Below, piece after piece: positions 1-61,333 of a stretch of DNA of 64,000 bases (within the stretch, counting starts at the first letter, position 1; each line of letters starts with the position of its first letter). A program made the position numbers and the translations under genes. The stretch is from Candidatus Hadarchaeota archaeon (GTDB lineage Archaea > Hadarchaeota > Hadarchaeia > Hadarchaeales > JAGGTB01). The notes beneath the pieces are model-generated. The model was not told the origin of the DNA and did not search any database. It was given only the letters and a program-made list of their open reading frames with translations. The stretch spans positions 648 to 64,647 of the forward strand of contig CAYLJV010000002.1 of NCBI GenBank assembly GCA_964384105.1. The letters run 5' to 3'.

Positions 1-905
1 GCCGGTTATCCTTCGTTGACGCTGCTATAGACAGGGGGGTGGAACTGGATTTCGATCTGGTGGATGGACAGAGCTTCCTCGCCTATCTGCCAGCCTACGG
101 AATAGGCGAGAGAAAGAGGGCGGTGAAGGTCGCCACCTATCACGAGACCTGGATCGGAGACTGGATCGAGAACAAGGGGCTGATCACCGGGATAGGTGGG
201 GAGATATGGGAGCGTCTCTCCCTGGGTAAGGACTGGGACCGGATACTCTCCGTGAGTGAGTTCACTAAAAACAGGTTGGTCGAGAGGGGTGTGGATGGTC
301 AAAAGGTGGACGTCGTTCCCAACGGGGTTGACCTCTCCGAGTTTGAGGAGGTCGAGGTCGAAAAGACGGAGGAACCCACCGTCTGTACCGTTTCGAGGCT
401 GACCGAGAAGAAAAAAGTCGATCTGGTCATGAAGGCCTTTGAAAAGGTTTCCGAAAAGTTCCCCTCCTGCAAGCTTAGGGTGGTCGGTGACGGGCCTGAA
501 TACGACAAGCTGGAGAGGTTGGCGGATGAGCTGGATGCTGATATTGAATTAGTAGGCTACGTTCCTGACAAGAGGGATGTTATAAGAATCATGAAGGAGT
601 CTCACGTTTTTGTATCAGCTTCTGTTCTGGAGGGTTTCGGGGTTTCGGTTATAGAATCTGCCGCCTCCGGGACGCCTTACGTAGTTTCCGATATTGAACC
701 GCATGTTGAGGTTACCAAGGGGGAGAAGGGTGGGTTGGTTTTTAGAAGGGACGATCGGGAGGATCTTGAGGGGAAGATTTCTAGACTCCTAGAGAATAGG
801 GAACTTTACGAGGAAAAGAAGAAGGAATGTAGGTCCTTGGCAAAGGAATACGACTGGGGAAAGGTTGTGGATGGGTTGGAGAGAATTTATTCTGATCTTT
901 TGTGA
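1..905 (+). CDS. Glycosyltransferase family 4 (GT1 fold), C-terminal part; 5' end lies outside the window (open frame continues to position 3, annotated start is GTG at 39)
   Basis: Typical GT4 C-terminal domain residues (E..G.PVV-like segment 'SVIESAASGTPYVVSD', KVD/VVGDGPE pattern). Frame is open to the window edge. Confidence 0.6.
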   Translation, partial: RLSFVDAAIDRGVELDFDLVDGQSFLAYLPAYGIGERKRAVKVATYHETWIGDWIENKGLITGIGGEIWERLSLGKDWDRILSVSEFTKNRLVERGVDGQKVDVVPNGVDLSEFEEVEVEKTEEPTVCTVSRLTEKKKVDLVMKAFEKVSEKFPSCKLRVVGDGPEYDKLERLADELDADIELVGYVPDKRDVIRIMKESHVFVSASVLEGFGVSVIESAASGTPYVVSDIEPHVEVTKGEKGGLVFRRDDREDLEGKISRLLENRELYEEKKKECRSLAKEYDWGKVVDGLERIYSDLL

Positions 906-985: not shown

Positions 986-1963
986 TCAGTCAAAATAACC
1001 CAGATCTTTCAATCTCTTTTTTATCTCCTCTTCCTCATCACCTTGGAAATCTTCCTCTTCATCCTGTTCCTCCAGTTCTCCGTGAGCGTACTTCTCAGAG
1101 TCAAAATCCCCTGAGAGGATTTCCTTGATTATGTCGTAAAAATCTGTCATTTTCGGATTTTTCAAACCTAGTTCAACGCTTGAAGAGTAGAACCCGTAGT
1201 TCATGTCGGTGTGGTCCCCGTAATTTCCTAATCTTTTCATACCGTGATCAGAAACGATCAAGACCAGACCATCGAATCGATTCTTTACCGTGCCAGCTAG
1301 ATCATTCAAAACGCTGTATGTCTCCTTCATCACTTCCATATTTCCTCGATAGACGTGACCCATCCAGTCAGCGGGTCCGAACCAAGCCATGACCAAGTCT
1401 TTATCGAGGTTTTGCAACAGTTCCTTCTTTGTTTTTTTGAAACAGTTCCATACCCCCTCTTGGAACTCGCTGTCTGATATTTTGTCCTCAATCATCTCCT
1501 TCATACTCGTCTCCTTAGACCTCTTTTTGCTGAAGGATGGAATATTTATACCTATCGAGTCACCCACGTTATCAAAAATAGTTTTCTTTTTCAGATCCTT
1601 CGAAACATTTTGACTTTTTACCGTACCCTTGACTCGATCTACGAGACCGAGCTTTCCAAGATGGTGTTTCGTGGATACTGCTATTTTTCCAGAAACGTTC
1701 TTCTTTAGAAATTTGTATGGGGAACGGAAAATCTTCTTAAGAAATCCCGATCCCTCCTCTTCACGAAAATAAGGCTCCAAATTCTCCCCTGTAAGAAAGG
1801 AACCCCAAAGTATGGGCGTGAATACTGTGTAGAAGTCCGAAATATCGACCTTTCCATACTCTTTTTGTTCTAAATTTGGGAAGTCAAACTTCTCAATCAA
1901 ATCAATCTCAAGAGCATCATAGGCTAAAATGCATATTTTTTGATTTTCTTCGATACGATCCAA
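986..1963 (-). CDS. Alkaline-phosphatase-superfamily protein, subtype B (type I phosphodiesterase / nucleotide pyrophosphatase-like). Ends in a CysD-like tail KKRLKDLGYFD after an acidic stretch
   Basis: N-terminal 'ILAYDALE...LWGSFLTGEN' and C-terminal 'VSDHGMK..GDH' motifs resemble the metal-binding / SDHGM motifs of the PF01663-like AP superfamily. Paralogue of 55173..55901. No signal peptide. Confidence 0.5.
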   Translation of the reverse strand: MDRIEENQKICILAYDALEIDLIEKFDFPNLEQKEYGKVDISDFYTVFTPILWGSFLTGENLEPYFREEEGSGFLKKIFRSPYKFLKKNVSGKIAVSTKHHLGKLGLVDRVKGTVKSQNVSKDLKKKTIFDNVGDSIGINIPSFSKKRSKETSMKEMIEDKISDSEFQEGVWNCFKKTKKELLQNLDKDLVMAWFGPADWMGHVYRGNMEVMKETYSVLNDLAGTVKNRFDGLVLIVSDHGMKRLGNYGDHTDMNYGFYSSSVELGLKNPKMTDFYDIIKEILSGDFDSEKYAHGELEEQDEEEDFQGDEEEEIKKRLKDLGYFD

Positions 1964-2063: not shown

Positions 2064-3647
2064 TTGGAGACCTATCTAAACCCGAATCTGAGGATGAACG
2101 AAATGGGGGAAGACGAAAGTATTGCTCAGCAGATTTTCAAGGGTTCCTCAGTCACTTTCATAGGACAGATCGTGGTAGGAGCATCGACATTTCTTCTGAG
2201 AATTTTTTTAGCACGTGGTCTCACCACCTCAGAGTTTGGACTCTTGTTTGCCGTGATTAACCTCATTGGGTTTACAAATGTATTTTCCCATCTGGGGTTA
2301 AATGCAGGAGTCAAAAAATTTGTTTCAAAATACATGGCCAAGGGAAAGCCGGATTTAGCTCGATCTTCTATAATATCCGCGCTTGTTATAGTAACCATAG
2401 CATCTCTGATAGTATCATCCGCTTTTATATTTGCTTCCAACTTCCTTGCCAACTCCTACTTCGGCACGGGGGACGCTGTCCCCATAGTAATAATAATGAG
2501 CATTTGGTTCTTCTTCATGTCCTACTACCATCTCCTAGCCAATGCCCTGCAAGGATTCAAGGACTTTACTGGGAATATCATTGGAAGTGTCTTGAGAGTG
2601 CTCACCCCCTTCCTTGGGGTTCTCATTTTAATCGCCTTTTTAGACCTCACCGCAAATATAGCTGCGTTCCTATATCTATTGGGGCCGATTCTAGCGACGG
2701 TTTTATATTACAGACTCCTTAGAAGACGACACTCAGATATAGTGATCAAAACCCAGGGGGGTTTCTCGACCGAAATAGGTAAGAAAATGATTTTCTTCGG
2801 ACTACCTCTCATCCTGTCAGGAGTTGCGACATCGGTAATAGGACAAATAGATACCATTATGCTCACCGGTCTGCGTTCATTAAGCGATGTAGGACTCTAT
2901 GAGGCGGCAAAGGTGACCAAGACGGGACTCGCTTTCCTGGGTGGCGCACTTGCCACTCCAATGTTCCCCATAGTCTCGGAACTATGGGCGAAAAAGGACA
3001 TCAAAACACTTCGGAAAACCCTCAGCTTCATGACAAAGTTCTCCTTCATCGGTATACTACCCGCAGCACTGGTGTTCTTCGCATTTCCTGAAATCGTAAT
3101 AAGGATCCTCTTCGGATCAGAGTACGTGGCAGCAGCAAACGCTATGAGGATCTTCGCTGGAGGAGCAATCTTTTGGTCTATCGAAACAGTTTTCGTGAGT
3201 TCTCTCAGTGGCATAGGCAAAACAAAGCTGGTGTTGAAAGTCAACGGCATCTCCGCTCTGTTTAACATAGGGGCAAACTATCTTCTGATTCCACTCTATG
3301 GAGCTACCGGAGCAGCTATGGCCACTGGACTTTCCTTCTTGTTAGCCTTTTTACTATCCTTCTATTATTCCAAGAGAGAGATCGGATTTCTTCCAGATTT
3401 TGCTTCCTTGATGAAGGCCGGTGCCGGGAGCCTGCTTACCCTGGGGCTTATCTTCCTTCTAAAGGAGACCTTCCCCCTCCCCACGTGGCCTCTGCTGTTC
3501 ATATCGATGGGTACTGGCCTGATTTTCTACATACTCTGGGTATTCACAACGGGCACAATCAAAAAAGAGGACCTTACAACGATCGAGGAAAATACGCCCG
3601 TTCCCAGCAAAATTATCTCGGTTTTTAGGAAGATATTCTTCAGTTAG
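2064..3647 (+). CDS. Polysaccharide biosynthesis protein / Wzx-like flippase (MOP superfamily), multi-pass membrane protein
   Basis: 527 aa, about 12-14 hydrophobic segments, typical polysaccharide-transporter organisation. Sits inside a GT cluster. Confidence 0.65.
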   Translation: METYLNPNLRMNEMGEDESIAQQIFKGSSVTFIGQIVVGASTFLLRIFLARGLTTSEFGLLFAVINLIGFTNVFSHLGLNAGVKKFVSKYMAKGKPDLARSSIISALVIVTIASLIVSSAFIFASNFLANSYFGTGDAVPIVIIMSIWFFFMSYYHLLANALQGFKDFTGNIIGSVLRVLTPFLGVLILIAFLDLTANIAAFLYLLGPILATVLYYRLLRRRHSDIVIKTQGGFSTEIGKKMIFFGLPLILSGVATSVIGQIDTIMLTGLRSLSDVGLYEAAKVTKTGLAFLGGALATPMFPIVSELWAKKDIKTLRKTLSFMTKFSFIGILPAALVFFAFPEIVIRILFGSEYVAAANAMRIFAGGAIFWSIETVFVSSLSGIGKTKLVLKVNGISALFNIGANYLLIPLYGATGAAMATGLSFLLAFLLSFYYSKREIGFLPDFASLMKAGAGSLLTLGLIFLLKETFPLPTWPLLFISMGTGLIFYILWVFTTGTIKKEDLTTIEENTPVPSKIISVFRKIFFS

Positions 3648-3766: not shown

Positions 3767-4762
3767 GTGAGATACCTGAAAGAATTACCTAAGCAGAAGA
3801 GCCTTATATATAAGGGAGATTGGGACTTCCTAATAATATTGGACGCCTGCCGCTACGATTATTTTAAGAACTTATACAAATCGTATCTGCCCGATGGAAG
3901 TTTAACCAAAGTAGAATCGGAGGGATCCAATACTGCCCAATGGTTGATAAAAACTTTCGATAAACCGATGAGAGACACCATCTATATCTCTTCCACCCCA
4001 TGGGTAAACTCCAAAGTGCCTGTGGAACACGAAAAAATGGGGGAAATAGTAGATGTAAGAAATAGTTTTTCAAAAATTATAGATGTCTGGGATTTCGGCT
4101 GGGAAAACGGAGTAGTTTGGCCGAAAACCATGGTAGAAACTGCAAGAGTAGTTGAAGAAAAAAACTCAAACAAAAATAAAAGGAAGATAATCCATTATAA
4201 GCAGCCGCATTGTCCCTATCTTGAGGAGCTTGAAACCTATCACGGAGAAAAATATCTATCTCACCTCACTAATCTTATCGAATTACCCAACGGATTATTC
4301 AATAAGAAAAATAATGAAAAGGGGAAAAAATCAAGAAACAAGGTTGGAAAAGGAGTGGCGAGGGGAAGAATAGGCAAATTTTTAAAAAACACCTTTGGAA
4401 TGGAATTCTTCACAGAACTCAAAGAGTTTTTAAGATTACCGTCCAGAACTACCGGAGAGGTCATGAAAAGAAAAGGAGTAAAAGGCTTACGAAGGCTTTA
4501 TAATGAAAACCTTAGAAGAGTTCTTCGATCAGTAGCCGAGCTTAAGGAAATATTGGATGGAAAATTAGTGATCACTGCAGACCATGGTGAATTTTTAGGA
4601 GACGTATTTTATGAGGATCTAACGTCCAGACAAAGAAGGCAACTTAATGGCTTTAGAGGTAAGAATAATCAAAATTCGGACAAAAATGTAAAAGGTCCAC
4701 TTTCAGGCCATTCAATCGTAGAACATCCCATACTAAGAGAAGTTCCGTGGTGTATCGCTTAA
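3767..4762 (+). CDS. Alkaline-phosphatase-superfamily protein, subtype A (sulfatase / phosphoethanolamine-transferase-like core), with Lys/Arg-rich insertions
   Basis: 'ILDACRYDYF', 'SEGSNTAQWL' and 'ITADHGEFLG...HPILREVPW' motifs are shared with 4910..5728 and 12325..13176. The ADHGE.LGE motif resembles the sulfatase / EptA-type C-terminal metal site. No signal peptide. Confidence 0.5.
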   Translation: MRYLKELPKQKSLIYKGDWDFLIILDACRYDYFKNLYKSYLPDGSLTKVESEGSNTAQWLIKTFDKPMRDTIYISSTPWVNSKVPVEHEKMGEIVDVRNSFSKIIDVWDFGWENGVVWPKTMVETARVVEEKNSNKNKRKIIHYKQPHCPYLEELETYHGEKYLSHLTNLIELPNGLFNKKNNEKGKKSRNKVGKGVARGRIGKFLKNTFGMEFFTELKEFLRLPSRTTGEVMKRKGVKGLRRLYNENLRRVLRSVAELKEILDGKLVITADHGEFLGDVFYEDLTSRQRRQLNGFRGKNNQNSDKNVKGPLSGHSIVEHPILREVPWCIA

Positions 4763-4909
4763 ATTAATAAGATCAATTAAACGATATTTCTACTCATTTC
4801 AAGATTCTGAATAAATTAAGATAAAAATAAGTTGGTGATAATATCACCTTTCCCAATAGGTATCTGTTTGTATAAAATTTTTTATCCAACGCCAAATAGG
4901 TGTTAAAAC

Positions 4910-5728
4910 ATGAGATCTCAGAAAAATCTTATATACAGAGAAGATTGGAGTTGTCTAATAATTTTGGATGCTTGCCGATACGACTACTTTGAAAACCTTT
5001 ATGAGGATTATCTCCCACGGGGAAGACTTAAAAAAGTTCTTTCCGAGGGAAGCTCTACGGCTGAATGGCTTAGAAAAACATTTAATGACAATAATCTTGA
5101 GGACGTCATATATGTTTCCGCAAACGCTTTTATCAACTCTCAAGGCGCCAACATAGCCGGTTTCGACGGCAGAAAGCATTTTTTTAACGTGATAGACGTG
5201 TGGGATAAATATTGGAACAACGATCTAAAGACGATCCTGCCTGAAAAAGTCAGGAAAACAACCCTTCTTACCAAGGCAAAATTTCCCGATAAAAGAATTA
5301 TCACCCATTTCATGCAGCCACACTATCCTTATCTTTCGATTGGACCTGTTGAAGGAGGGTTAGGGGCTCCTAAAGCCGCCAAACAAAAGGGACTATTAAT
5401 AAAGACCCGGAGGAAAATAGGAAGATTCATAAGAAGAACAGCAGGTTTAGGAGTTTACAAGAAAATAAAAGAATATATCGTTGGCACACGAGAGGCAGGA
5501 AAATTGGAAAAAATAGTACAAGAATATGGAGAATATGAACTGAAACAGGCTTACATGAAAAATTTGATTAGGGTTCTTAAAGAAGCTAGAAAAATCTTGG
5601 AAAGATATCCCGGGAAAGTAGTTATTACCGCAGATCACGGTGAACTACTGGGGGAAGACGGATACGGACATCCTACAGACTCAAATCACCACATTTTGCG
5701 GGAGGTTCCTTGGTGGGGACCTGATTGA
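4910..5728 (+). CDS. Alkaline-phosphatase-superfamily protein, subtype A, tandem paralogue of 3767..4762
   Basis: 'IILDACRYDYFENLY', 'SEGSSTAEWL', 'VITADHGELLGEDGYGHP...HHILREVPWW'. Confidence 0.5.
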   Translation: MRSQKNLIYREDWSCLIILDACRYDYFENLYEDYLPRGRLKKVLSEGSSTAEWLRKTFNDNNLEDVIYVSANAFINSQGANIAGFDGRKHFFNVIDVWDKYWNNDLKTILPEKVRKTTLLTKAKFPDKRIITHFMQPHYPYLSIGPVEGGLGAPKAAKQKGLLIKTRRKIGRFIRRTAGLGVYKKIKEYIVGTREAGKLEKIVQEYGEYELKQAYMKNLIRVLKEARKILERYPGKVVITADHGELLGEDGYGHPTDSNHHILREVPWWGPD

Positions 5729-5785: not shown

Positions 5786-6613
5786 TCATCTCAGAAAATA
5801 TTCCCGTTCTTCCTGAGCTTTCTCTACCAGTTCTTTAACAGATTTTTTGAAATTCTCCTCTGCCCTTTCAAAGGTGTATTCAGAGGCGACTTCTTTGGCC
5901 TTTCCCGACATTTTTTGCATTTCTTTTTCATCTTTGTCTATCAGTTCATTTATCTTACTATAGTACTCAACCACCTCGTTCTGTAACACGAGTTCAGGAC
6001 TTACTTTATGGACCATGTTTTTATTCCCCGTATTTTCGCTCACGATTGGAATCAGGCCGGCAGCCATGGCCTCCAAAACGCTATTGGGTGCTGCATCAAA
6101 ACGGGCAGGGTGAACATAAAATGTGGATTTTTTTAGGTAAGGTTTTGGATCAGTATAGCCGATGAGATGAAACTTCGGTTCTTTGACTTCATATTTTTTT
6201 ATATAGGACGGGATTCCTTCCTTTGAACCTAAGATATATGTTTCTCCACTAAAGCCGTCTTGTCGCAATTTCTTATCGACTTCCATCAAAATATCGTTCC
6301 CCTTTCTTGGATAGTGGGTTCCTATAGATACAACATTTGAGGACAGCAAATCCGGTTCAATCTCCAGAAATGACTCTTTCATTAGAAAGGGGTCTACCTT
6401 TCTGCAGAGACATTCGCTGTTTTTCTCCACATATCCTTTTATCATGTCTGAGACTGCAATCACCCCGTCTATATGTCTAGACATCCATCGATGCAAAATC
6501 TTTTGATAACTCGGAAAAAATTCGAAGTCAAAAAATCTGTCATTCGACCTTACAATTAAGATTATTTCTTTACCAAGAATGGCTTTTCGAATAACTATAG
6601 GTAGAATAGCCAT
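5786..6613 (-). CDS. Glycosyltransferase family 4, C-terminal domain. The upstream reading frame stays open to about 6832 without a start codon (possible disrupted gene)
   Basis: GT4 C-terminal motifs ('EAMAAGLIPIVSENTGN'). 73 in-frame sense codons lie upstream of the annotated Met with no ATG/GTG/TTG. An out-of-frame ATG follows a GGAG at about 6823. Confidence 0.5.
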   Translation of the reverse strand: MAILPIVIRKAILGKEIILIVRSNDRFFDFEFFPSYQKILHRWMSRHIDGVIAVSDMIKGYVEKNSECLCRKVDPFLMKESFLEIEPDLLSSNVVSIGTHYPRKGNDILMEVDKKLRQDGFSGETYILGSKEGIPSYIKKYEVKEPKFHLIGYTDPKPYLKKSTFYVHPARFDAAPNSVLEAMAAGLIPIVSENTGNKNMVHKVSPELVLQNEVVEYYSKINELIDKDEKEMQKMSGKAKEVASEYTFERAEENFKKSVKELVEKAQEEREYFLR

Positions 6614-7299: not shown

Positions 7300-7983
7300 G
7301 TGAACCTCAAAAATTTAGAAAATAAGTATATCGGGGATAAAGTAAATAATTACGACAAAAGAAGAAGAAATACAGTACAATGGAAATTAGAACAAAAAAA
7401 GATTGAAAAAATTTTAGAAAAAATCCGAAATAACAAAAATGGGCATTTGAAAGTTCTGGACATCCCCGTCGGAACCGGCCGATTTTTCAAGTCATATAAA
7501 AAACTTGGTTTCAAAGTAACAGGAGTGGATATATCACAGGATATGATTAAGCAAGCAGAAGATCGAAGCAAAGAACTTAATCTGAATGCGAAATTTGAAA
7601 AAGGGAACATATTTAGTATCCCTCACGAAAACAACAGTTTTGATTTATCGGTTTGCACGAGATTTATGAATCACATCGATTTTGACAATTTTAGAAAAGC
7701 GCTAAAGGAAATAAAGAGAGTATCAAAATCTTACATAATAATCGATCTCAAGATTTGGAAGCCATATAACATTTTTACATATTTACTAAAATGCTACAAT
7801 AAAATTAGGGAAATAATAAATTTAGAAAAAAATTTTGACCATCTTCACCGAGAAAGCCAGGTTAAAGAATGTTTTTCCGACAACTCTCTATCAATACAGG
7901 AAACCAAAAAGCTGGAATATGGCAACCTAAGTTTTGACCATTTTATTTTTCATCTGAAAAAAACAAAATACAACGGTCGATGA
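7300..7983 (+). CDS. Class I SAM-dependent methyltransferase
   Basis: Motif I 'VLDIPVGTGRF'. Very AT-rich gene inside the glycan locus. Confidence 0.6.
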   Translation: MNLKNLENKYIGDKVNNYDKRRRNTVQWKLEQKKIEKILEKIRNNKNGHLKVLDIPVGTGRFFKSYKKLGFKVTGVDISQDMIKQAEDRSKELNLNAKFEKGNIFSIPHENNSFDLSVCTRFMNHIDFDNFRKALKEIKRVSKSYIIIDLKIWKPYNIFTYLLKCYNKIREIINLEKNFDHLHRESQVKECFSDNSLSIQETKKLEYGNLSFDHFIFHLKKTKYNGR

Positions 7984-8336: not shown

Positions 8337-9353
8337 ATGAAAGTTTGCCTACTCTCAAGATTTTTCGACCTAAGAAACGGTGGGGTCGGCCGATATTCCA
8401 TGGAGCTATTGAAAAGGCTACAGAGAGAGAAAGATTTAGAAATAAAGACTGTCGATCAAGAGGACGGAATACCATTAGGCGAAGGAATGGCAAAATACCT
8501 CCTGTTCTCCTTTTTTGAGTCACGTTTCAGAATCCCTTCGGCAGATGTCTATCATGCTTTATCGCCCCTGGAAGCCTTACACGCTCCCGCCCCACTTCTC
8601 ACGACCTTCCACGATCTTATCCCAATTCTGAACCCAGGGAAAGTCACAGGGAATCACTTTGGGAGCGTTCTAGAAAGGACAATCAGATCTAATTATTTTA
8701 AGATGGCCTGTTCCCGAGCTATAGATAAATCAGATTTATTAGCTTCAGTCAGTCGACAGACAAAGGAACAACTGGTCGAAGAGTTTGGCGTCGACGAGCA
8801 AAAGATTGAAGTTATCAGACACGGTATAAACCCCAATTTGGAGCCGGAACACAAAAAGGAAGAAATCTTCAGAATCGGAACGCTCAGCTTTCTGGGACCA
8901 AGAAAAAGAATCGACTTACTTATAAAATCATTTCTGGAAGCAGACGTCGACGGAGAGTTGACGATAGCTGGAAGTGGAAGGATGATAAAAGAGCTAAAAA
9001 GGGTAGCAGACGGTGACAATCGTGTGAAGTTTCTCGGGTTCGTCCCGGAGGAAGAAGTTAAAGACTTTTATAATTCCCTTGATGTTTTTGTTTTTCCTAC
9101 GAAGTTTGAGGGCTATGGTCTACCGATAGTGGAGGCGATGGCATGCAAGGTTCCTGTAGTGACACTTTCAGACGCCATTATTCCGTCAGATATCAAGGAG
9201 AAAACAATTGTTACGGATGATCTAAGAAGTTGGCTCAAAAATCCCAGCTTTTCGGAAATAAATCTTGATGAAAACTATGAATTCGCCGAAAAGCATGATT
9301 GGGAAAAATGTGCGAAAAAACATAGAGACATTTACGAGAAACTTCGAAAATGA
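8337..9353 (+). CDS. Glycosyltransferase family 4
   Basis: 'FVFPTKFEGYGLPIVEAMACKVPVV' is the canonical GT4 E-x7-E region. Confidence 0.65.
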   Translation: MKVCLLSRFFDLRNGGVGRYSMELLKRLQREKDLEIKTVDQEDGIPLGEGMAKYLLFSFFESRFRIPSADVYHALSPLEALHAPAPLLTTFHDLIPILNPGKVTGNHFGSVLERTIRSNYFKMACSRAIDKSDLLASVSRQTKEQLVEEFGVDEQKIEVIRHGINPNLEPEHKKEEIFRIGTLSFLGPRKRIDLLIKSFLEADVDGELTIAGSGRMIKELKRVADGDNRVKFLGFVPEEEVKDFYNSLDVFVFPTKFEGYGLPIVEAMACKVPVVTLSDAIIPSDIKEKTIVTDDLRSWLKNPSFSEINLDENYEFAEKHDWEKCAKKHRDIYEKLRK

Positions 9354-9404: not shown

Positions 9405-10670
9405 ATGAAAGTATTGTTTCCGACAGAATATTATCCTCCTTCTGTAAAAGGAGGCGCCGAAATCAGTGCAAAACTGCTTGCTGAGGGATTGACAAATCAA
9501 GGCGTTGAGGTTCACGTGCTCACTCCAAAATACGATCCATCTAAAAACGATTTGTCGAAGGAAGATGGCGTCACGGTCCACAGATTTGAAAGCCCTAGAA
9601 GAATTTTCTTCAAGGGGCAAAAAGTAGCGGAAAGTGCTTACTCTAAAAGAAGAGCTCTTTATTATCTGGCTATAAACAGATATATTAGATTATCTTCCCG
9701 GGAATTTAGTAAAAAAATTTCTGAACTACAATCAAAAGAGAAATTTGACTTAGTGCACGCACAAAATGTAGAGTCAGTCTTCGGCTTAAATATGGCAGAC
9801 ATAGATGTTCCCAAAATAGCTCATATCAGAGGACTTCAATATTTTTGCATAAGCGGATCCAAGCAATTTGAAGGAGATTATTGCGAGGGTTGCTCAGTAA
9901 AAAAACTAAAGAGTTGTCTAGAAACAAATTTTCTCTTAGCAAAGTTAATTCAACGAGAGGTCGCATGGAGAAAAGAACACATTAAAAACTTTGACCACTA
10001 CATCTGTGTAAGCAAATACATAGCTCAAAAACTGTCCGAAGAGGGACTTCCAGCAAGAAGAATTACTGGTTTACATAATCCCATCGATAAAGATCATATT
10101 TCCGGTCTTAATAAGAACGAAGCAAGAAACAGGCTAGATTGGGATTATGAAAAAATTATTCTATATGTCGGAGGACTCACAAAGAACAAAGGAGTGGAAT
10201 ATCTTCCGGAAGTCGCTCAAAAAGTTCCAGAAGCGGACCTTGTTATTGTAGGGGGTGGCCCTCTTGAAAACTGGATATCCAAAAAAGCAGATTCTATTGA
10301 TAATCTCCACTGCAAGGGTCAATTCCCGTTCAGAGAGGTCAAACACTGCTATCGAGCAGCAGACATTTTATTCGTATCCTCAACTTGGCAAGAACCCTAC
10401 CCTCGAGTGGTTATAGAAGGCCAGTCAAATGGAGCCTGTGTAGTAGCATTTTCGGTAGGTGGAATCCCAGAAGCTATTGAAAATGGTAAAACGGGCTATT
10501 TGGTAGGGAGAGGAAACATTACAGAAATTGTAAACATTATTAGAAAGTTGTTTGAAAATAAGAATTTGATAGAAAGGATCGGTAAAAGCGCGCAAAAGAA
10601 AGTTTTGAGGCGAAATATAAAAGAAGAATTTGCCAGAGACGTAAAGGAAATTTATGAGTCGTTGAGTTAA
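9405..10670 (+). CDS. Glycosyltransferase family 4
   Basis: N-terminal 'PPSVKGGAEISAKLLAEGLTNQGVEVHV' and C-terminal 'EPYPRVVIEGQSNGACVVAFSVGGIPE'. Confidence 0.65.
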   Translation: MKVLFPTEYYPPSVKGGAEISAKLLAEGLTNQGVEVHVLTPKYDPSKNDLSKEDGVTVHRFESPRRIFFKGQKVAESAYSKRRALYYLAINRYIRLSSREFSKKISELQSKEKFDLVHAQNVESVFGLNMADIDVPKIAHIRGLQYFCISGSKQFEGDYCEGCSVKKLKSCLETNFLLAKLIQREVAWRKEHIKNFDHYICVSKYIAQKLSEEGLPARRITGLHNPIDKDHISGLNKNEARNRLDWDYEKIILYVGGLTKNKGVEYLPEVAQKVPEADLVIVGGGPLENWISKKADSIDNLHCKGQFPFREVKHCYRAADILFVSSTWQEPYPRVVIEGQSNGACVVAFSVGGIPEAIENGKTGYLVGRGNITEIVNIIRKLFENKNLIERIGKSAQKKVLRRNIKEEFARDVKEIYESLS

Positions 10671-10771: not shown

Positions 10772-11800
10772 TTATTTCTGGAGATTTTCATAAACATTCA
10801 AATACTTATCTGCAACTTTCCTCGGGTTGTGCTTTTCTTTTATTTCCCTGAACGCATTCTTTCCCAACTTCCTCCTGAGATTCGGGGAGTCAAGTAGTTT
10901 AATTATTTTTTTTGCTAAATCTGCAGTATCTCCTGGCTCAATCAAAAATCCGGATTCATTATCCCGGATAGTTTCTGGTATAGCACCAATTCTTGTACTT
11001 ACGATCGGCTTTGCGTGAGCCATAGCCTCCAAAAGGCTAACCGGAACGGATACAGGATCATGGGTTAAATATGGATAAGTAGCAATAGTGGCCGCTTCAA
11101 GTAGATTGTAAATTTCCCTCTCTTTCAGAAATCCGTAAAATTTCACCCTTTTTCTAATTCCGAGGTTTTTGGCTATTTCCTTATATTTTCGTTTGTATTT
11201 TGAAAGCGAATAATGTTTACAAGCTATAATAAATTCCACGTCCGGATGTTCTTCTAAAACCTTAGGAGCAGCTTTCAACACCTGAACTTCCCCTCTTTCT
11301 CTAAATTTTTTACCTGTGAATAATATCTTTTTATTATTTCTAAAAGAAATAGAAGACAGCTTCGAGCCCTCAACCGCAGGAGGTATCACCTGTAAGTTTC
11401 CTACTAAATGATGATCTTTTAAGAAATTCTTAAGAAACATGCAGGTCACTACACCTTCTATGTTAGGAGTTTTTGGCCATCTAAAGATAGGTGGAAGGGT
11501 ATTGAGCATGGTTTTGGAAAAAAGCATTGGCATTTTCGCAATATAATGTGAGGGGTTTAATTTTAACTTCTTCCAAATAGTTTTAAAATCATATCCCAGG
11601 GGGCCATAAAGTGTATATATATCAGGCCTCAGATTTAGCAAATCAGTAAGGGTATGGATATGGGCGTGATTTATGAAGTATTGCTTTGATTTATCGGAGA
11701 CCGATACTTTGTTACCTCTCTCCCTTAGAGCTTTGACCAGCTGGTTCGTACAAGTTCTAAGTCCCCCTCTCCGATCTCCAACTATCATATTAATTTTCAT
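10772..11800 (-). CDS. Glycosyltransferase family 4
   Basis: 'TYPYLTHDPVSVPVSLLEAMAHAKPIVSTRIGAIPE'. Confidence 0.65.
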   Translation of the reverse strand: MKINMIVGDRRGGLRTCTNQLVKALRERGNKVSVSDKSKQYFINHAHIHTLTDLLNLRPDIYTLYGPLGYDFKTIWKKLKLNPSHYIAKMPMLFSKTMLNTLPPIFRWPKTPNIEGVVTCMFLKNFLKDHHLVGNLQVIPPAVEGSKLSSISFRNNKKILFTGKKFRERGEVQVLKAAPKVLEEHPDVEFIIACKHYSLSKYKRKYKEIAKNLGIRKRVKFYGFLKEREIYNLLEAATIATYPYLTHDPVSVPVSLLEAMAHAKPIVSTRIGAIPETIRDNESGFLIEPGDTADLAKKIIKLLDSPNLRRKLGKNAFREIKEKHNPRKVADKYLNVYENLQK

Positions 11801-12324
11801 TATAACACTCGTCTAAATTTTTATTTCTTCTGAAGATGTAAGTGGAGATTCATTAAATAAATTTCTAATCTCAATAATAGGTTTCACGTACTTTTCCCAA
11901 ATATCCACTTTTGGAATCTTTCTCATTTATTATTTCTAATTTCATCCCTTAAATGGAAAATAATACCATATCTAACTTATTTCCCCAAACAAGATCATAG
12001 ATTCTGAACAGATAGTCATAGGATGGAATAACGAAAGAAACACAGAGGTTCTTCAAAGGTCTAAAAGGCATTTTTGAAGACATTATTTGAATTTCCAAAG
12101 AACCAGAAGTCTCAAAGATTGAAAAAGACTCGCGAGTGCGACAATAACGAAAATAAATGTTAAGATGACTATTTTTATTACTAACGCTCAGAGAAATAAC
12201 TGGTTGTAGACGAAAAGTTTTATCTATTTTGATATCAAGACAGCATTTTAAATGAAAGGCATTCTTTATAAATGTTCAAAACTTGTGAAGCTTATCCCAT
12301 AAAAATTGAATCAGGCGATTAAGA

Positions 12325-13176
12325 ATGAAATCCCAGAAAAAACTAATTCAAAATAGAGAATGGGATGTATTGATACTGCTAGATGCATGTCGATATGATA
12401 TCTTCAAAAAATGCTTTAAAAGGCATATTGAAGGCACTTTGAAGAAAGTGATTTCTGAGGGGTCCTGTACGCTTGATTGGCTTAAAGGAACTTTTAAGGA
12501 GAGCCATTTTAACGACGTTGTATATGTATCTGGAAATCCTTATATCAATTCTAAAGGAATCAGTATTCATGGATTCGATGGAACTAATCATTTTTATAAA
12601 ATTATTGACGCGTGGGAAAGTGGATGGATAGACGAGATAAAAACTGTTAAACCAGATGTAATGGGAAAAAAGACCCGACTTGCTAGGGCTAAGTACCCTG
12701 GTAAAAAAATAATCTCCCATTTCGCACAACCTCATTATCCATATCTATCGGAAAAGCTTGTCTATATGGGAGGCTTTACCGACGCTTTTTACAAAGCAAC
12801 AAATGAAAGAAATAGAATCGGGCTATTTTCACAAAAAATTAGAGAAATAATCGGGAGGATAATGAACAGAGTTTTAGGTTGGAGACTTACCCAAATGATA
12901 AGAAAAAAACTAAGCTTGATTGAATTAATTGGTGATCCTAGATTAAAAAAGTTCGCCCAAAAATATGGAACGACTTATCTTAAAAATGCATATGAGGAAA
13001 ATCTCATACTAGCTCTTACTGAAGTTCAAAATATTATTGATCGACTTCCCGACAATAAAATCGTAATAACATCTGATCACGGAGAATTACTGGGAGAAGA
13101 TGGAATCTATGGTCACCCAGAAGGACTGAATCATAACATACTGATTGAGGTTCCCTGGTTGGAAATAAATCACTGA
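12325..13176 (+). CDS. Alkaline-phosphatase-superfamily protein, subtype A
   Basis: 'LILLDACRYDIF', 'SEGSCTLDWL', 'VITSDHGELLGEDGIYGHPEGLNHNILIEVPW'. Confidence 0.5.
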   Translation: MKSQKKLIQNREWDVLILLDACRYDIFKKCFKRHIEGTLKKVISEGSCTLDWLKGTFKESHFNDVVYVSGNPYINSKGISIHGFDGTNHFYKIIDAWESGWIDEIKTVKPDVMGKKTRLARAKYPGKKIISHFAQPHYPYLSEKLVYMGGFTDAFYKATNERNRIGLFSQKIREIIGRIMNRVLGWRLTQMIRKKLSLIELIGDPRLKKFAQKYGTTYLKNAYEENLILALTEVQNIIDRLPDNKIVITSDHGELLGEDGIYGHPEGLNHNILIEVPWLEINH

Positions 13177-13285
13177 AAGTTTGGCTGTTTTGAAACTTTA
13201 TTTTTGATATTTTTGGCCACCTCCCCTATCAAAATCATAAAACAGATAGAAGAATATTCTTACACAAAAATAGTTAAATGAGAAA

Positions 13286-14226
13286 TCAGACAACATTTCT
13301 AAACCACTCAATAAACTCCTCAAGACCTCTCCCCAAATCGTAAACCGGCTCCCAGCCTAACTCTTTTTCAGCATTGGAAACGTCTGCCCAAGTGTGCCTA
13401 GCATCCCCCTCCCTCTGTTGAGTATGAACTACCTCACAATCACTTTCAGTGAGATTCCTAATCCTATCAACTAACTCGTTTACCGAAATACTCTCTCCAC
13501 TCCCAATATTATAAGCCTCCCCATCACTCACTTTTCTCTCCAAACAAAGGTTCTGAGCATCCACAATATCCTCAATATAGGTGAAGTCCCTCGTCTGCTC
13601 CCCATCTCCAAAAACTTTTATCTTCTCCCCCTTCAACGCCCTCCTAGTGAAAATAGATATAGCTAAATCAGGCCTCATTCTAGGTCCGTATACAGTAAAA
13701 TACCTCAAAGAAACTGTCGGAATCCCATAAATTTCACTGTAGACCCTCACGTAATTCTCCGCCGCGAGCTTTGACACCCCGTAGGGTGATACAGGAATCT
13801 TTCTGGACCCCTCCTTGAAAGGTAAATCTGGACTCCTGCCATAAACACTACTTGAAGAAGCAAACAAAAAGTGTTCTACCCCCTTCTTCCTAGCCGCTTC
13901 CAGAAGATTCAGGGTACCCCTGTGTTCACAGAGTGAGGCTTCTCTGGATTCTCGACCGAAACCCTGACCCCAGCCTGAGCCGCCTGATGATTAATAGCGT
14001 CCACGTCTTCCACAAGCCCAAAAACCAAATCCCTATCTCGAATGTCACCCCTCACGAACTCAAATGAATCGTAATCCCCCAGAATATCTAAATTCCTTTC
14101 CTTCAACAAAACATCGTAATATGGATCGAGATTATCCAAACAAACAACTTCATGTTCCTTCTCCAAAAGAGATTCACAGGTGTGACTTCCAATAAAACCG
14201 GCTCCTCCAGTAACCAGTATCCGCAC
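13286..14226 (-). pseudogene. NAD-dependent epimerase/dehydratase (UDP-sugar 4-epimerase family) split by a -1 frameshift in a GGGG run near 13868-13912 (pseudogene or homopolymer sequencing error)
   Basis: N-terminal ORF 13909..14226 carries '[11 protein letters not shown]'. C-terminal ORF 13286..13867 starts 'FASSSSVYG'. The intervening bases read [19 protein letters not shown] in the C-terminal frame, and one extra G in 'acagggg' would join the two frames. Confidence 0.7.
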
Positions 14227-14228
14227 TC

Positions 14229-15011
14229 TTAATCCTCGCCGAAGTGGTTATCGTCTCCCTGCGCAAGCCGATCAGCCTCCGCAAGTGACTCGAACGTCCC
14301 TATATCGTATCGATTGCCCTCGAATACATAACCGTAAAGCCCTCCCTCTCCCTTTCTAAGGGACTCAACCGCGTCCGTAAGCCACAGTTCTCCGCCTTTT
14401 CCGGGCTCTATCCTATCTATATATTTGAACAATTTTGCATTAATTATCATTAGACCGGCGATATTCAACCAGTGGTCATCCCTCCTGTAGGGTTGAGCCT
14501 CCTCCATGGTCGGCTTCTCGATCATCCCCACCACCACATTCTCCTCAGTGAGTTTAACCACTCCGAACCTCTTTGGGTCATCCACGGGATGAAGCACCAG
14601 CGTTCCACTTCCGTTCTTCTCCTCGTGAAACCTAACTATGTCCTTCATCGCACTGTAAGGGGAGATATAATTGTCCCCATACATTATAGCGAAGTCCTCG
14701 TCCTCTTCTACGAAGTCTCTAGCCAGAGAAACAGCGTGAGCCGTACCCCTTGGCTCTTCCTGAACCCGGTAGTAAATATCCAAATCCAGTCGCTCTCCAG
14801 AACCGAGATAATCAATTATCGCCTGCTTCTTCCTCCCCACAACAATGAGAACATCTTCCACACCACCGTGCTTCAGTACGTTCAATACGTGCTCTATCGT
14901 GGGCTTCTTCCCAACCCGAACGATCTCCTTTGGAATCGCATAAGTTATGGGTCTCAAACGGGTGCCCTCCCCCGCCGCGAGAACGACAGCCTTCTTAACC
15001 ACCCAAATCAC
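14229..15011 (-). CDS. Sugar-1-phosphate nucleotidyltransferase (glucose-1-phosphate thymidylyl/uridylyltransferase-like)
   Basis: '[23 protein letters not shown]' matches the G-x-G-T-R-L-x-P-x-T signature. A 4-nt overlap with the upstream gene suggests an operon. Confidence 0.7.
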
Positions 15012-15892
15012 TCCCTCACACCATATCTCTCGGCCATGTACTCATTGATTTCCTCGACAGCCTTCAACAGCTCAGGCTCCTCCCCCACTTCCTCTTCTGC
15101 AAAGGCTATAAGTGCCCTCAAATCCTTCGGCAGACACTTACCACCAAAAGCCATCCCGTAAACCGTACCATACTTACCAATTCTATGGTCCATAGCCACG
15201 GCCTTTGCAACCCTGTCCGAATCTATATCTAATTCTTTACAGATCTTGAAAATCTGATTCCAATACGAGATCTTGGTCGCCAACATACAGTTGCTGGCAT
15301 ATTTTATCATTTCAGCTTCACTAAGTTCAGTTCTCACGATAGGAACATCAAGCCTTTCGTAAACTTTCTCCAGTTCGTCTCCCGACCTATCATCGTATTC
15401 CCCTATCACTATCCTGTCCGAGGAAAACCCCTTCTCGAATCTCCTTTCATCAGTCCAAGTGTCCGAGATCTCAGTCAAAAACTCCGGATTCATACAGACC
15501 CCAATATCCTCACCGATCTTTTTATCAGAAATCTTCTCGAGAACAGGAATAACAAGTTCCTCGGTCGTGGTCGTAACCACGGTACTTTTGACGACAACGA
15601 GATGATAGTCGTCCTTCTCTCTCAGTACCCTTGCAAGGTCTTCAACCGCTTCCTCCAAGTAATCTAAGTTAATCTTACCCTCTTCGGTAGGTGTGGGAAC
15701 GCAGAGAAAAGTGACATCGGAATCGAGAACGACTTCTTCCAGGTCAGTAGAGGCTTCATAACCCTGTTGGTTCAACGCTTCTACCCTTTCTTCAGAAATA
15801 TCATGGAAAACGACATCGTGTCCAAGACTAATCAGGCCCTTTCCCGTTTTCTCACCGACCCAACCGCTCCCAACGATGCTTATTCGAGTCAA
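15008..15892 (-). CDS. UDP-glucose / GDP-mannose dehydrogenase family protein with N-terminal and central domains only (no C-terminal UDP-binding domain)
   Basis: 'ISIVGSGWVGEKTG' NAD-binding motif and catalytic Cys motif 'FGGKCLPKDLRAL'. 294 aa versus about 430 aa in full-length UgdH. The stop overlaps the next gene. Confidence 0.6.
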   Translation of the reverse strand: MTRISIVGSGWVGEKTGKGLISLGHDVVFHDISEERVEALNQQGYEASTDLEEVVLDSDVTFLCVPTPTEEGKINLDYLEEAVEDLARVLREKDDYHLVVVKSTVVTTTTEELVIPVLEKISDKKIGEDIGVCMNPEFLTEISDTWTDERRFEKGFSSDRIVIGEYDDRSGDELEKVYERLDVPIVRTELSEAEMIKYASNCMLATKISYWNQIFKICKELDIDSDRVAKAVAMDHRIGKYGTVYGMAFGGKCLPKDLRALIAFAEEEVGEEPELLKAVEEINEYMAERYGVRE

Positions 15893-16349: not shown

Positions 16350-17237
16350 ATGCCAGAAGAAGACACCACCTTAGAAAAGCTCAAAGAATCCTTCCCAATA
16401 AGCCAAGAGGAGGCAGAATCTCTTTTAGAACACCTGAAGACCTCCTGGAGATCGGAGGAACTAGTACCCCAACCGGAAGGCTACATCCTGGTTCCAACAA
16501 AGAGAATAGTCGAACCGGAACACCCGATAAGAGAGAACCCGGGGAACCTGAAACCCATCGCAAAATCGATAGAAAGAGAAGGAAACCTCCAGCCGATCTG
16601 CCTCAGACCACTGGACGAAGAATGGAGAAAGTTCACCCCAATAATAGGAAGAAGACGGTTCAGAGCCTGCACAGAAATATTGGGCATGAAGGAAATACCG
16701 GCCTACATTCGAGAAGTAGAGGAGGAAGAAGTGCCATCGATAGCTCTTGAAGAAAATATATTCCGAAAGAACCTGGAACCCTCCGAGCTCCTGAACGCAA
16801 TGCTCGAACTCAGGGAACTGGGATACGCACAGAAGGGGATAGCCGAGGTGGTCAACATGAGTCAGCCCGAGGTCTCGACCTACCTGAGAGTTCCAGAACT
16901 ACCCGACGATATTCGAGACGCCTTCTTTTCGGGAAATATATCGCTGGAGCACATCAAGGTCCTCCTCAAGATGAAAGGGAAGAGCAGGGAGAAACTCTTC
17001 GGTAGAATGATGGAAGAGAACCTGAGTGTCAACGACTCTAAAGCAATAGCGAAGCTGATGACCGGCGAGTTCGAGGTACCCGAGTTCTTCGACGGAGAGG
17101 AGTTCGAGTCCCGATTAGGGAGAAGCGTCGATTACAAAAGCACCAGCAGGAGCGCAAGGTTATCGGTAAAAGCAGAAAACGAGGAGAAACTGGGCGAGAT
17201 ACTGATGGAAATCCTGAAAGTAAAAAAGATAGAATAG
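16350..17237 (+). CDS. ParB/Srx (ParB N-terminal nuclease-like) domain protein with C-terminal HTH
   Basis: 'NLQPICLRPLDEEWRKFTPIIGRRRFRACTEI' resembles the ParB box region. The 3' end lies inside a ~90 bp repeat. Confidence 0.5.
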   Translation: MPEEDTTLEKLKESFPISQEEAESLLEHLKTSWRSEELVPQPEGYILVPTKRIVEPEHPIRENPGNLKPIAKSIEREGNLQPICLRPLDEEWRKFTPIIGRRRFRACTEILGMKEIPAYIREVEEEEVPSIALEENIFRKNLEPSELLNAMLELRELGYAQKGIAEVVNMSQPEVSTYLRVPELPDDIRDAFFSGNISLEHIKVLLKMKGKSREKLFGRMMEENLSVNDSKAIAKLMTGEFEVPEFFDGEEFESRLGRSVDYKSTSRSARLSVKAENEEKLGEILMEILKVKKIE

Positions 17238-17311
17238 CCTTCCTTTAGAAAATAAAGCAATTTTAGGAGATTTAGTATAGGTGACCTATAATCGATAACT
17301 CGAAGATTTTT
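17220..17311 (+). repeat. Direct repeat copy 1 (~90 bp, ~85-90 % identical to 17953..18047), includes the 3' end of the ParB-like gene
   Basis: Alignment by eye: ...aaaaaaga..gaaatag.c.tc.tt...aaaataaagcaattttaggagNtttagtataggtgacctataatcgataactcgaagatttt. Confidence 0.7.
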
Positions 17312-17357
17312 TCTTTAAAAGGGGACTGGTTCTAAATGGTTTTCAGGATAATACGGT

Positions 17358-17606
17358 ATGAAAATAGTCTTTTCCAATCATTCGCTGAAAAGATTGAAGC
17401 AAAGAAATATCTCGAGGAGAAAAATCGGGGGAATTCTAAAAAATCCAGATGAAACTCGAAAAGGAAAATACGGAAGAAAAATTGCACACAGGTGGGAAAA
17501 CGACAAATTAATTCGGGTAGTCTATATTAAAAAAGGAGAAAGAAGATACGTTATAACAGCCTACAAGACAGAACCAGACAGATATGGTGATAAAAAATGG
17601 AAATAA
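17358..17606 (+). CDS. DUF4258-family protein (toxin-like)
   Basis: 'SNHSLKRLKQRNISRRKI...LIRVVYIKKGERRYVITAY' matches the DUF4258 pattern. Overlaps the DUF2283 gene. Confidence 0.55.
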   Translation: MKIVFSNHSLKRLKQRNISRRKIGGILKNPDETRKGKYGRKIAHRWENDKLIRVVYIKKGERRYVITAYKTEPDRYGDKKWK

Positions 17607-17803
17607 GTTACGACCCAGAAGTAAACGTCCTAAACATACAATTACAAAAAGGAAATTATGAAAAAAGCATAGAGGTAGACGACAGAATCATAATCGACTA
17701 CTCAACTGATGGAAAGATAATGAACATCGAGATACTAGACGCAACAGAAAGAATATCCACAAAAACCATCGAAAACATGAAAAAACGAAAATCCATAGCA
17801 TAA
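17597..17803 (+). CDS. DUF2283-family protein (partner of DUF4258)
   Basis: 'YDPEVNVLNIQLQKG...DGKIMNIEILDA'. Confidence 0.6.
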   Translation: MEISYDPEVNVLNIQLQKGNYEKSIEVDDRIIIDYSTDGKIMNIEILDATERISTKTIENMKKRKSIA

Positions 17804-17836
17804 TCTCTCGTAAAATATATTTCTAAGAATACAAGG

Positions 17837-18016: not shown

Positions 18017-18047
18017 GTGACCTATAATCGATAACTCGAAGATTTTT
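17953..18047 (+). repeat. Direct repeat copy 2, includes the 3' end of the 59-aa ORF
   Basis: Same as above. The core 63 nt is identical except for one base. Confidence 0.7.
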
Positions 18048-18084
18048 ATCTCCTATTAAAAAACTCTCTCAAAATATTCAATCG

Positions 18085-61292: not shown

Positions 61293-61333
61293 TACGTATA
61301 TAATTACTATCTAATTTTTCCTACAGTGAAAGT

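Follow-up and report, generated by a model that had tools for sequence, protein, structure and literature searches.

Small soluble proteins of the alkaline phosphatase superfamily in a Hadarchaeota archaeon, candidate cytoplasmic transferases linked to glycan assembly and sulfate activation

Genes at the locus

We analyzed 64,000 nucleotides of DNA from a Candidatus Hadarchaeota archaeon (assembly GCA_964384105.1, contig CAYLJV010000002.1, positions 648 to 64,647 of the forward strand). This whole stretch is called the window below. It encodes five small proteins of the alkaline phosphatase (AP) superfamily, which belong to two families, A (A_3767, A_4910, and A_12325) and B (B_986 and B_55173). 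A preliminary description, made from the sequence alone, had reported five open reading frames (ORFs) at these positions and had sorted them into the same two groups of three and two. All five ORFs were found. They encode 242 to 331 amino acids, contain every A and B motif that had been quoted, and keep the proposed grouping, with identities of 40 to 47% within A and 39% within B. The closest relatives of the window were MSBL1, Thermoplasmatota, and Natronoplasma metagenome-assembled genomes (MAGs).

A glycan-assembly island lies at 1 to 16 kb. It contains five GT4 glycosyltransferase genes, a flippase gene, a methyltransferase gene, and genes for a nucleoside diphosphate (NDP)-sugar epimerase, a nucleotidyltransferase, and a dehydrogenase (Table 1). 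The B_986 gene is divergent from the flippase gene. The five AP-fold genes had been described as sitting among GT4 genes, a flippase, and a methyltransferase. That island is real, but B_55173 lies outside it, as the last gene of a cysD-cysN-B cassette.

Table 1. Positions of the AP-fold genes and of the other annotated features in the window
Feature	Position	Strand	Description
A_3767	3767-4762	+	331 aa; A-family copy 1 (soluble AP superfamily, EptA/sulfatase branch)
A_4910	4910-5728	+	272 aa; A-family copy 2, minimal form
A_12325	12325-13176	+	283 aa; A-family copy 3
B_986	986-1963	-	325 aa; B-family paralogue, minimal NPP-like AP-fold enzyme
B_55173	55173-55901	+	242 aa; B-family cassette member, minimal NPP-like enzyme
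Wzx/MOP-type lipid-linked oligosaccharide flippase	2064-3647	+	directly 5' of the tandem A genes, same strand
GT4 glycosyltransferase	39-905	+	N terminus probably beyond the window edge
GT4-type glycosyltransferase	5786-6613	-	C-terminal GT1 domain; convergent with the A genes
S-Adenosylmethionine-dependent methyltransferase	7300-7983	+	
GT4 glycosyltransferase	8337-9353	+	
GT4 glycosyltransferase	9405-10670	+	
GT4 glycosyltransferase	10772-11800	-	
NDP-sugar epimerase/dehydratase, ORF 1 of 2	13286-13867	-	nucleotide-sugar supply
NDP-sugar epimerase/dehydratase, ORF 2 of 2	13909-14226	-	nucleotide-sugar supply
Sugar-1-phosphate nucleotidyltransferase	14229-15011	-	nucleotide-sugar supply
UDP-glucose/GDP-mannose dehydrogenase	15008-15892	-	nucleotide-sugar supply
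RHH-like small ORF 1	52497-52712	+	71 aa; acidic linker; C terminus ...RERLRALGYMD
RHH-like small ORF 2	52865-53092	+	75 aa; C terminus ...REKLKALGYLE; overlaps the cysD start
CysD, sulfate adenylyltransferase small subunit	53089-53913	+	C terminus ...MQKLRSLGYM
CysN, sulfate adenylyltransferase GTPase subunit	53936-55162	+	without a fused APS kinase
LGY tail of B_986	986-1020		
LGY tail of RHH-like small ORF 1	52680-52712		
LGY tail of RHH-like small ORF 2	53060-53092		
LGY tail of CysD	53886-53913		

Sequence, fold, and active site of family A

The similarity among the three A copies is far above chance. They share the motifs ILDACRYD, SEGSxT, and ITADHGE.LGE...H..ILREVPW. The extra length of A_3767 consists of two internal insertions, one of them about 30 residues long between the DHGEFLGD motif and the distal His. 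The protein keeps all of the conserved residues (D26, T56, H143-x-x-Q-P-H148, and D272-H273).

Profile matches of the A copies were weak. On PF00884, A_4910 scored 15.5 bits, A_12325 scored 13.7 bits, and A_3767 had no match; all three are below the gathering threshold of 25 bits. The NCBIfam models for EptA and MCR gave 9 to 16 bits versus cutoffs of 500 to 1,250. Further weak Pfam and NCBIfam matches were to PglZ and to the C terminus of STM4013. The profile check against PF00884 and PF01663 that had first been suggested thus placed only B_55173 above threshold, on PF01663; the A copies stayed below it on PF00884 and B_986 on PF01663. Because these matches were sub-threshold for A and borderline for B, we turned to structure prediction.

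The AlphaFold2 model of A_4910, built from an alignment of homologues, has a predicted local distance difference test score (pLDDT) of 92.3. Its alpha/beta core superposes on solved members of the AP superfamily, which bears out the fold first proposed from motifs. Compared with solved structures, the A model is closest to EptA/MCR-1 and to sulfatases.

Twelve residues are invariant in 64 A sequences: D20, C22, R23, D25, T50, H133, Q136, P137, H138, D242, H243, and H254. In the family profile, DHGE.LGE.G.Y.H aligns with ...DHGESLGENGMYLH of EptA, which places D242, H243, and H254 on the EptA metal site residues D452, H453, and H465. D20 lies at the end of beta-1. T50 opens the helix that follows beta-2 (residues 50 to 58). 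The first metal ligand and the nucleophile canonically occupy these two positions. Family members have Thr, or occasionally Ser, at the nucleophile position, within S-x-G-S-x-T. The formylglycine motif C/S-x-P-x-R was not found at this position, and there is no PxR. A profile of the N-terminal half of A had no meaningful match among PDB sequences. Aligning the copies to map metal ligands and nucleophile, as had been recommended, therefore gave an invariant D/T/H set with a C-terminal match to EptA; its N-terminal part is mapped by topology only.

Hydrophobicity was scored as the maximum Kyte-Doolittle value over 19 residues. It is at most 0.75 in the A copies, at most 1.0 in all five proteins, and 2.5 in the flippase. 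The first beta-strand of the models begins at residue 2 to 15 (residue 15 for beta-1 of A_4910), which leaves no space for a signal peptide. With no hydrophobic segment and such an early first strand, the five proteins are predicted to be cytoplasmic, in agreement with the earlier report of neither signal peptide nor transmembrane segment. The A copies have a basic net charge and the B copies an acidic one.

Distribution and gene neighborhoods of family A

A search seeded with A_4910 retrieved 2,027 proteins at an E value of ≤1e-3. A profile of haloarchaeal members retrieved 4,356 proteins at ≤1e-5. Nearly all named members are called "hypothetical protein," "Sulfatase," or "Sulfatase N-terminal domain-containing protein." The hosts are Thermoplasmatales, Methanosarcinales, Aigarchaeota, Hermodarchaeota, Hadarchaeota, Pacearchaeota, and Halobacteriales, together with a few Phycisphaerae. 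Cultured hosts include Haloarcula rara and Haloarchaeobius.

The signature H-[FY]-x-Q-P-H is present in 237 of 241 A proteins versus none of 270 B proteins. Among the 2,023 ORFs of all of the DNA that we fetched, it occurs in 25 A genes only. From these counts, the signature appears essentially diagnostic of family A.

A rough neighbor-joining tree put the three window copies in separate subclades, each with orthologues elsewhere. A_3767 grouped with one copy each from L001 and L029 (L001b and L029b); L001 to L029 are the homologue loci of this study. On this tree, the window A paralogues are old and maintained and do not come from a recent local expansion.

In loci with enough flanking DNA, A genes adjoin genes for GT4 or GT2 glycosyltransferases, a Wzx flippase, and nucleotide-sugar enzymes. 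This arrangement was seen in Thermoplasmatota, Methanosarcinales, Aigarchaeota, Hermodarchaeota, Halobacteriales, and some Phycisphaerae. The linkage of A to glycan assembly is kept across archaeal phyla. Loci with two A copies are frequent (L001, L016, L017, and L029). In L005, the A gene lies beside a more distant sulfatase-like AP paralogue. In L003, a gene with an LMWPc domain is close to the A gene.

Family B and the cysD-cysN-B cassette

The two B copies both carry SDHGM. The AlphaFold model of B has a pLDDT of 96 and is closest, within the AP superfamily, to the phosphodiesterases of the nucleotide pyrophosphatase/phosphodiesterase (NPP) group. D8, T41, D160, H164, D200, H201, and H212 are invariant in 37 B sequences. 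By sequence, this set is predicted to be a full two-metal NPP site with a Thr nucleophile. The T-x8-TG spacing of B is one that we take to resemble the NPP nucleophile motif. B_55173, which had been called PF01663-like, scores 26.4 bits on PF01663 and passes the gathering score of 23 bits; B_986 falls short with 21.8 bits. Both matches cover the central to C-terminal part of the model only. The family has 506 representatives at 50% identity.

A and B had been taken for one expansion of five copies. We rejected a single family: hhalign aligned only the strand leading to DHG in the two profiles (E value of about 1e-4), and BLASTP was not significant. A and B are therefore two families related at the superfamily level only, and the expansion does not stand for this reason and for the age of the A paralogues.

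B_55173 starts 11 nucleotides after cysN. The CysD protein scores 344.5 bits on NF003587 (cutoff, 195) and matches chain A of 1ZUN with an E value of 1e-67. CysN scores 340.6 bits on TIGR02034 (cutoff, 336.1). Further examples of the cassette, which has the form small ORF(s)-cysD-(TauE)-cysN-B, come from a Woesearchaeote, Methanothrix, another MAG, and a close relative. B directly follows cysN in every cassette that we examined. Identities to the window proteins across cassettes are 62 to 71% for B, 61 to 77% for CysD, and 59 to 76% for CysN. B_55173 is as conserved as CysD and CysN across archaeal phyla. It presumably holds the slot of the adenosine 5'-phosphosulfate (APS) kinase, CysC, in bacterial cysDNC operons. 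A tblastn search of the window with an approximate E. coli CysC sequence found no APS kinase.

Both small ORFs upstream of cysD have an N terminus that resembles a ribbon-helix-helix (RHH), then an acidic linker and the LGY tail described below. Equivalents lie ahead of cysD, or ahead of an A gene, in L009, L024, L025, L027, and L029. A PDB search with the RHH-like small ORF gave no informative match. These ORFs may encode regulators tied to the sulfate-activation cassette.

A low-molecular-weight phosphotyrosine phosphatase/ArsC-like gene (PF01451; 55917-56321, minus strand) is convergent with B_55173 and lies directly 3' of it. The window also encodes an inositol-monophosphatase-family protein (PF00459; 40433-41203, plus strand). 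This family includes CysQ-type phosphatases of 3'-phosphoadenosine 5'-phosphate (PAP), so the protein is possibly relevant if 3'-phosphoadenosine 5'-phosphosulfate (PAPS) is the donor. Genes at 45722-47143 (plus strand) and 43881-44839 (minus strand) encode an enzyme of sulfur incorporation in homocysteine biosynthesis (HcyBio plus CBS) together with two CBS-pair proteins. The HcyBio-type route to homocysteine uses sulfide. This gives a hint that the window cysDN genes may serve sulfation and not sulfur assimilation.

Links between glycan enzymes and sulfate activation

L028 and L029 come from the contig of a close relative. There, two RHH-like ORFs, cysD, cysN, and B lie directly beside genes for GT2 and GT4 enzymes, a 466-aa PF01663 protein, and a methyltransferase. 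The block continues with two tandem A genes, a flippase gene, and genes for a sulfatase-like protein and an epimerase.

The A gene of L012, from an Aigarchaeote, and that of L013, from a Hermodarchaeote, are each 2 to 5 kb from a Sat-PF01663-APS kinase cassette, which is followed by TauE in L012. The PF01663 protein has 457 to 460 residues. In both cassettes (11511-15349 of L012 and 4819-7951 of L013), this full-length NPP-like gene is sandwiched by those for Sat and APS kinase. Archaeal cassettes for sulfate activation, whether of the CysDN or the Sat type, seem to include an AP-fold protein regularly.

In a Methanosarcinales locus (L009), the order is an RHH-like small ORF, the A gene, a PAPS reductase/CysD-like gene that abuts A, and an NTP-transferase::iPGM-like fusion. 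A long NPP-like gene is upstream. The fusion (11733-13685) joins an N-terminal sugar-phosphate nucleotidyltransferase to a domain like cofactor-independent phosphoglycerate mutase (iPGM), a member of the AP superfamily. No canonical sulfotransferase Pfam domain was found in the scanned ORFs of the window, in the scanned ORFs of L012 and L013, or in the Pfam records of L029.

A shared C-terminal tail

Four window proteins end in the same kind of tail: CysD, both RHH-like ORFs, and B_986. The tail consists of an acidic stretch, then (K/R)L(K/R)xLGY, and then zero to two residues at the C terminus. In B_986, it is an acidic C-terminal extension that ends ...KKRLKDLGYFD.

The tail is present in 118 of 120 haloarchaeal A proteins, in 17 of 121 closer A relatives (forms of about 300 to 360 aa), and in 39 of 150 B-family representatives. 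Further carriers among the AP-fold proteins of the loci are a 557-aa PF01663 protein in L007 and PF00884 proteins of 412 aa in L017 and 606 aa in L022. The PAPS reductase-like protein of L009 and every archaeal CysD that we examined have it too. The carriers include AP-fold enzymes of at least four subfamilies. Among stop-to-stop ORFs of at least 100 aa in L001 to L027, the tail was limited to such proteins and to one 541-aa protein without a Pfam match. Outside the window, tails were found in L003, L007, L008, L009, L014, L016, L017, L018, L022, and L024 to L029. CysD of P. syringae (1ZUN) ends ...KKRQGYF.

Three proteins of Halobacterium salinarum carry the tail as well. Translation of published reverse cloning and validation primers gave ...HLEDLGYL for Agl30, ...LEELGYT for Agl31, and ...KELGYIE* for VNG1063H (PMC11980604).

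The HbYX proteasome-docking motif was considered as the identity of the tail and rejected; the tail has Gly before Tyr and up to two residues after Tyr. We suspect that the tail may be a docking peptide, with the CysD-CysN complex as a candidate partner on the analogy of CysD. The tandem A paralogues of L029 (10001-11806) have no LGY tail. They end in basic, amphipathic-looking extensions, ...KIKNKVKELKQLKKI and ...ILRIVRHLKSKGKL, which may be helices for membrane association.

Comparison with known systems

(a) Agl30 and Agl31. Three "alkaline phosphatase domain" proteins of the H. salinarum aglB cluster were the subject of Zaretsky et al. (mBio 2025; PMC11980604). Agl30 (VNG1056C) is membrane associated and Agl31 (VNG1057C) is cytosolic, and by genetics both are N-glycan sulfotransferases (PMC11980604). 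Agl31 sulfates the terminal glucuronic acid (PMC11980604). Each of the two also sulfates the glycan of Haloferax volcanii when expressed there (PMC11980604). The dolichol phosphate-linked tetrasaccharide is sulfated before it is flipped by Agl29 (PMC12624080). The preliminary description had regarded small AP-fold proteins in a glycan locus as a system not yet described, a claim that these sulfotransferases have put out of date.

The window proteins resemble Agl30 and Agl31 in several ways. They share an AP-superfamily, sulfatase-like fold and, B_55173 excepted, are encoded in a glycosylation cluster with glycosyltransferases and a flippase. That context, on the cytoplasmic face, is the one in which the AP-fold proteins of the window's glycan island occur. 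The two haloarchaeal enzymes act before flipping, Agl31 is soluble, and the two paralogues serve two positions. Their LGY tail, a feature noticed in this study that does not belong to the published definition of these enzymes, recurs on B_986 and most haloarchaeal A proteins. The window proteins differ in that A is a separate minimal family (272 to 331 aa) below the PF00884 threshold and closest to EptA, and B is NPP-like. The window A copies also have no tail, and Agl30 and Agl31 (Q9HQQ3 and Q9HQQ2) were compared through their primer-encoded termini only.

(b) VNG1063H. The quantitative PCR primer for VNG1063H (Q9HQP7) encodes VHYFQPH, which is the A-family signature. Two short primer-encoded peptides were compared in all. 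Since they show the diagnostic H[FY]xQPH, VNG1063H is very probably the A-family member of H. salinarum. A search seeded with haloarchaeal A proteins gave no named H. salinarum A member in its top 120 matches.

(c) EptA and MCR-1. These enzymes (PDB 5FGN and 5GOV) share with A the Thr nucleophile and the aligned metal site motif. They have an N-terminal multi-transmembrane domain, a periplasmic catalytic domain, and a lipid donor. The A proteins, in contrast, have no transmembrane segment, are predicted to be cytoplasmic, and are about 100 residues below the size of the EptA soluble domain.

(d) NPPs. Family B keeps the six metal ligands and the Thr nucleophile of NPPs (PF01663; Xac NPP, 7MW8; ENPP4, 4LR2). 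The B proteins differ in being about 140 residues shorter and predicted to be cytoplasmic. B_55173 is the third gene product of an archaeal cysDN cassette, and B_986 is below the Pfam threshold and LGY tailed.

(e) STM4013/SEN3800. This hydrolase family (NF038075) is also a small (261 aa), soluble AP-fold family, and its C-terminal motif matches A_12325 with 30.1 bits. The scores of 30.1 and 17.9 bits compare with a cutoff of 250 bits and cover the last ~40 residues only; the family is bacterial and has another gene context. The literature yielded only an incidental mention of STM4013. Small soluble AP-fold families had been thought undescribed. This one, and the A members that UniRef names "Sulfatase N-terminal domain-containing protein," were already cataloged.

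Proposed function

We give a probability of about one half to the reading that the A proteins and B_986 are cytoplasmic transferases, most likely sulfotransferases, that act on lipid-linked glycans before flipping. Sulfo-modification of lipid-linked glycan precursors, one of the possibilities raised at the outset, is the reading that the evidence favors. We infer the transferred group, the donor, and the acceptor as follows. The A proteins would be minimal EptA/sulfatase-like enzymes with a Thr nucleophile, B_986 would be a minimal NPP-like enzyme, and all four would be cytoplasmic group transferases. The acceptor would be the lipid-linked oligosaccharide made by the neighboring GT4 enzymes, modified ahead of export by the adjacent Wzx-type flippase. 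Sulfate is the group most likely added, given the gene linkage of the proteins to surface-glycan genes and to the sulfate-activation operon; Agl30 and Agl31 of Halobacterium add the same group. The maintained paralogues would probably differ in the sugar or position that they serve, and the cysD-cysN-B_55173 cassette of the window would supply the activated sulfate. In a ping-pong reaction, the metal-activated Thr may attack APS or PAPS, form a covalent sulfo-enzyme, and pass the sulfate to a sugar hydroxyl.

Several points weigh against this reading. In the structural comparison, the nearest solved structures to the A model are phosphoethanolamine transferases, and its putative Thr nucleophile is typical of phosphoryl, not sulfuryl, transfer. 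Sulfatases rely on formylglycine, and family A has no C/S-x-P-x-R motif. The N-terminal half of A matched no solved structure, so D20 and T50 are assigned by topology and invariance only. The three window A copies and B_55173 have no LGY tail. Sulfate-activation genes lie within 10 kb of A in only 3 of about 13 long A loci, and in the window itself the cysDN cassette is 37 to 50 kb away from the A genes. Deletion of VNG1063H left N-glycan sulfation unchanged (PMC11980604). The papers on Agl30 and Agl31 discuss no donor, active site, or motifs (PMC11980604, PMC12624080).

The structural match to EptA raises the alternative that the A proteins transfer phospho-groups in the cytoplasm. From a soluble or inner-leaflet donor, phosphoethanolamine, phosphoglycerol, phosphocholine, or a similar group would pass to the lipid-linked glycan through a Thr-phospho-enzyme of the EptA/LtaS/BcsG type. 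The best PDB profile matches of A are EptA-type domains, the sub-threshold NCBIfam matches are to EptA and MCR models, and the Thr/Ser nucleophile position is that of characterized phosphoethanolamine and glycerol-phosphate transferases. However, the transmembrane domain of EptA/LtaS-type enzymes positions the lipid donor, and the A proteins have no such domain. We saw no CDP-alcohol or phospholipid headgroup genes beside the A genes. The nearby recurring genes are for sulfate activation and not for a phospho-donor. The tailed relatives of A have their tail in common with CysD and the two sulfotransferases Agl30 and Agl31. We regard phospho-group transfer as unlikely.

The place of B_55173 suggests another alternative, in which some or all of the proteins would be hydrolases that service the pathway. 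They might be PAP or APS phosphatases or phosphodiesterases, phosphatases for nucleotide by-products or polyprenyl pyrophosphate, or editing sulfatases; B_55173 in particular might pull or detoxify the CysDN reaction. In favor, B is a minimal NPP whose two-metal site is complete, and its gene always comes after cysN; in L012 and L013, the longer PF01663 protein is encoded between Sat and APS kinase. The tail of the proven transferases is also missing from B_55173 and from the long NPP-like proteins. Hydrolysis of APS beside its maker would nevertheless be futile and would cost ATP and GTP. The presence of several diverged A paralogues in a glycan locus is better explained by acceptor-specific tailoring than by housekeeping hydrolysis, and Agl30 and Agl31 are sulfatase-like yet add sulfate in vivo. 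A hydrolytic role is improbable in our estimate.

PbgA/YejM is an AP-fold lipid-binding protein. Incidental linkage, or a noncatalytic scaffold or binding role of this kind, would suit the lack of a phenotype in the VNG1063H deletion, but it is very unlikely, since none of the catalytic-type residues varies among hundreds of sequences from several phyla and the synteny with glycan genes is kept across phyla.

The sulfotransferase reading can be extended with the tail, although we hold this extension to be doubtful. The LGY tail would be a portable peptide, copied from CysD, that docks at least four AP-fold subfamilies (A, B, the PF00884-like proteins that include Agl30 and Agl31, and the long PF01663 proteins) and the RHH regulators onto CysD-CysN. 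Tail-less B would be a third subunit of that complex. Archaeal glycan sulfation would then be channeled, perhaps from APS directly and without PAPS, with the sulfatase/phosphatase fold run "in reverse" through a covalent sulfo-enzyme. Free RHH tails would provide feedback control.

Other features of the window

The NDP-sugar epimerase/dehydratase is split into an N-terminal ORF of 105 aa and a C-terminal ORF of 193 aa, which may reflect a frameshift, a pseudogene, or an assembly error. A run of small ORFs on the plus strand at 16350-22351 has a strong AT skew. It encodes a ParB-like protein (16350-17237), a helix-turn-helix protein, and PIN-domain (VapC-like) toxins at 19380, 21133, and 21932. 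Each of the three toxin genes has a short ORF just 5' of it. The run looks like a toxin-antitoxin or mobile-element island.

One tRNA gene (57263-57336, minus strand) was the sole Rfam match in the window. The window also encodes a thermosome, in keeping with an archaeal host. The minus-strand interval 60369-62371 contains genes for a TtuA/NcsA-like protein of tRNA thiolation and for a radical-SAM enzyme of the AmmeMemoRadiSam type. L028 shows synteny with the segment that runs from PGM/PMM to this radical-SAM gene.

Implications for archaeal glycan sulfation

The route of surface-glycan sulfation in archaea was unknown until 2025, when genetics showed that two sulfatase-like proteins carry it out. 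AP-fold proteins of this kind have thus been known since then. What is new here is families A and B, the cysD-cysN-B cassette, the PF01663 protein within Sat-CysC cassettes, and the LGY tail. The phenomenon would extend well past the haloarchaea and would include at least two further minimal AP-fold families, of which A comprises thousands of proteins annotated only as "hypothetical." Gene order ties the A and B families to sulfate-activation cassettes that have an AP-fold component of their own. The C-terminal tail occurs on members of the A and B families, on the published enzymes, and on CysD. The small soluble A and B proteins should express easily. If the proposed chemistry is true, the AP fold would add a third structural solution to those known for biological sulfotransfer.

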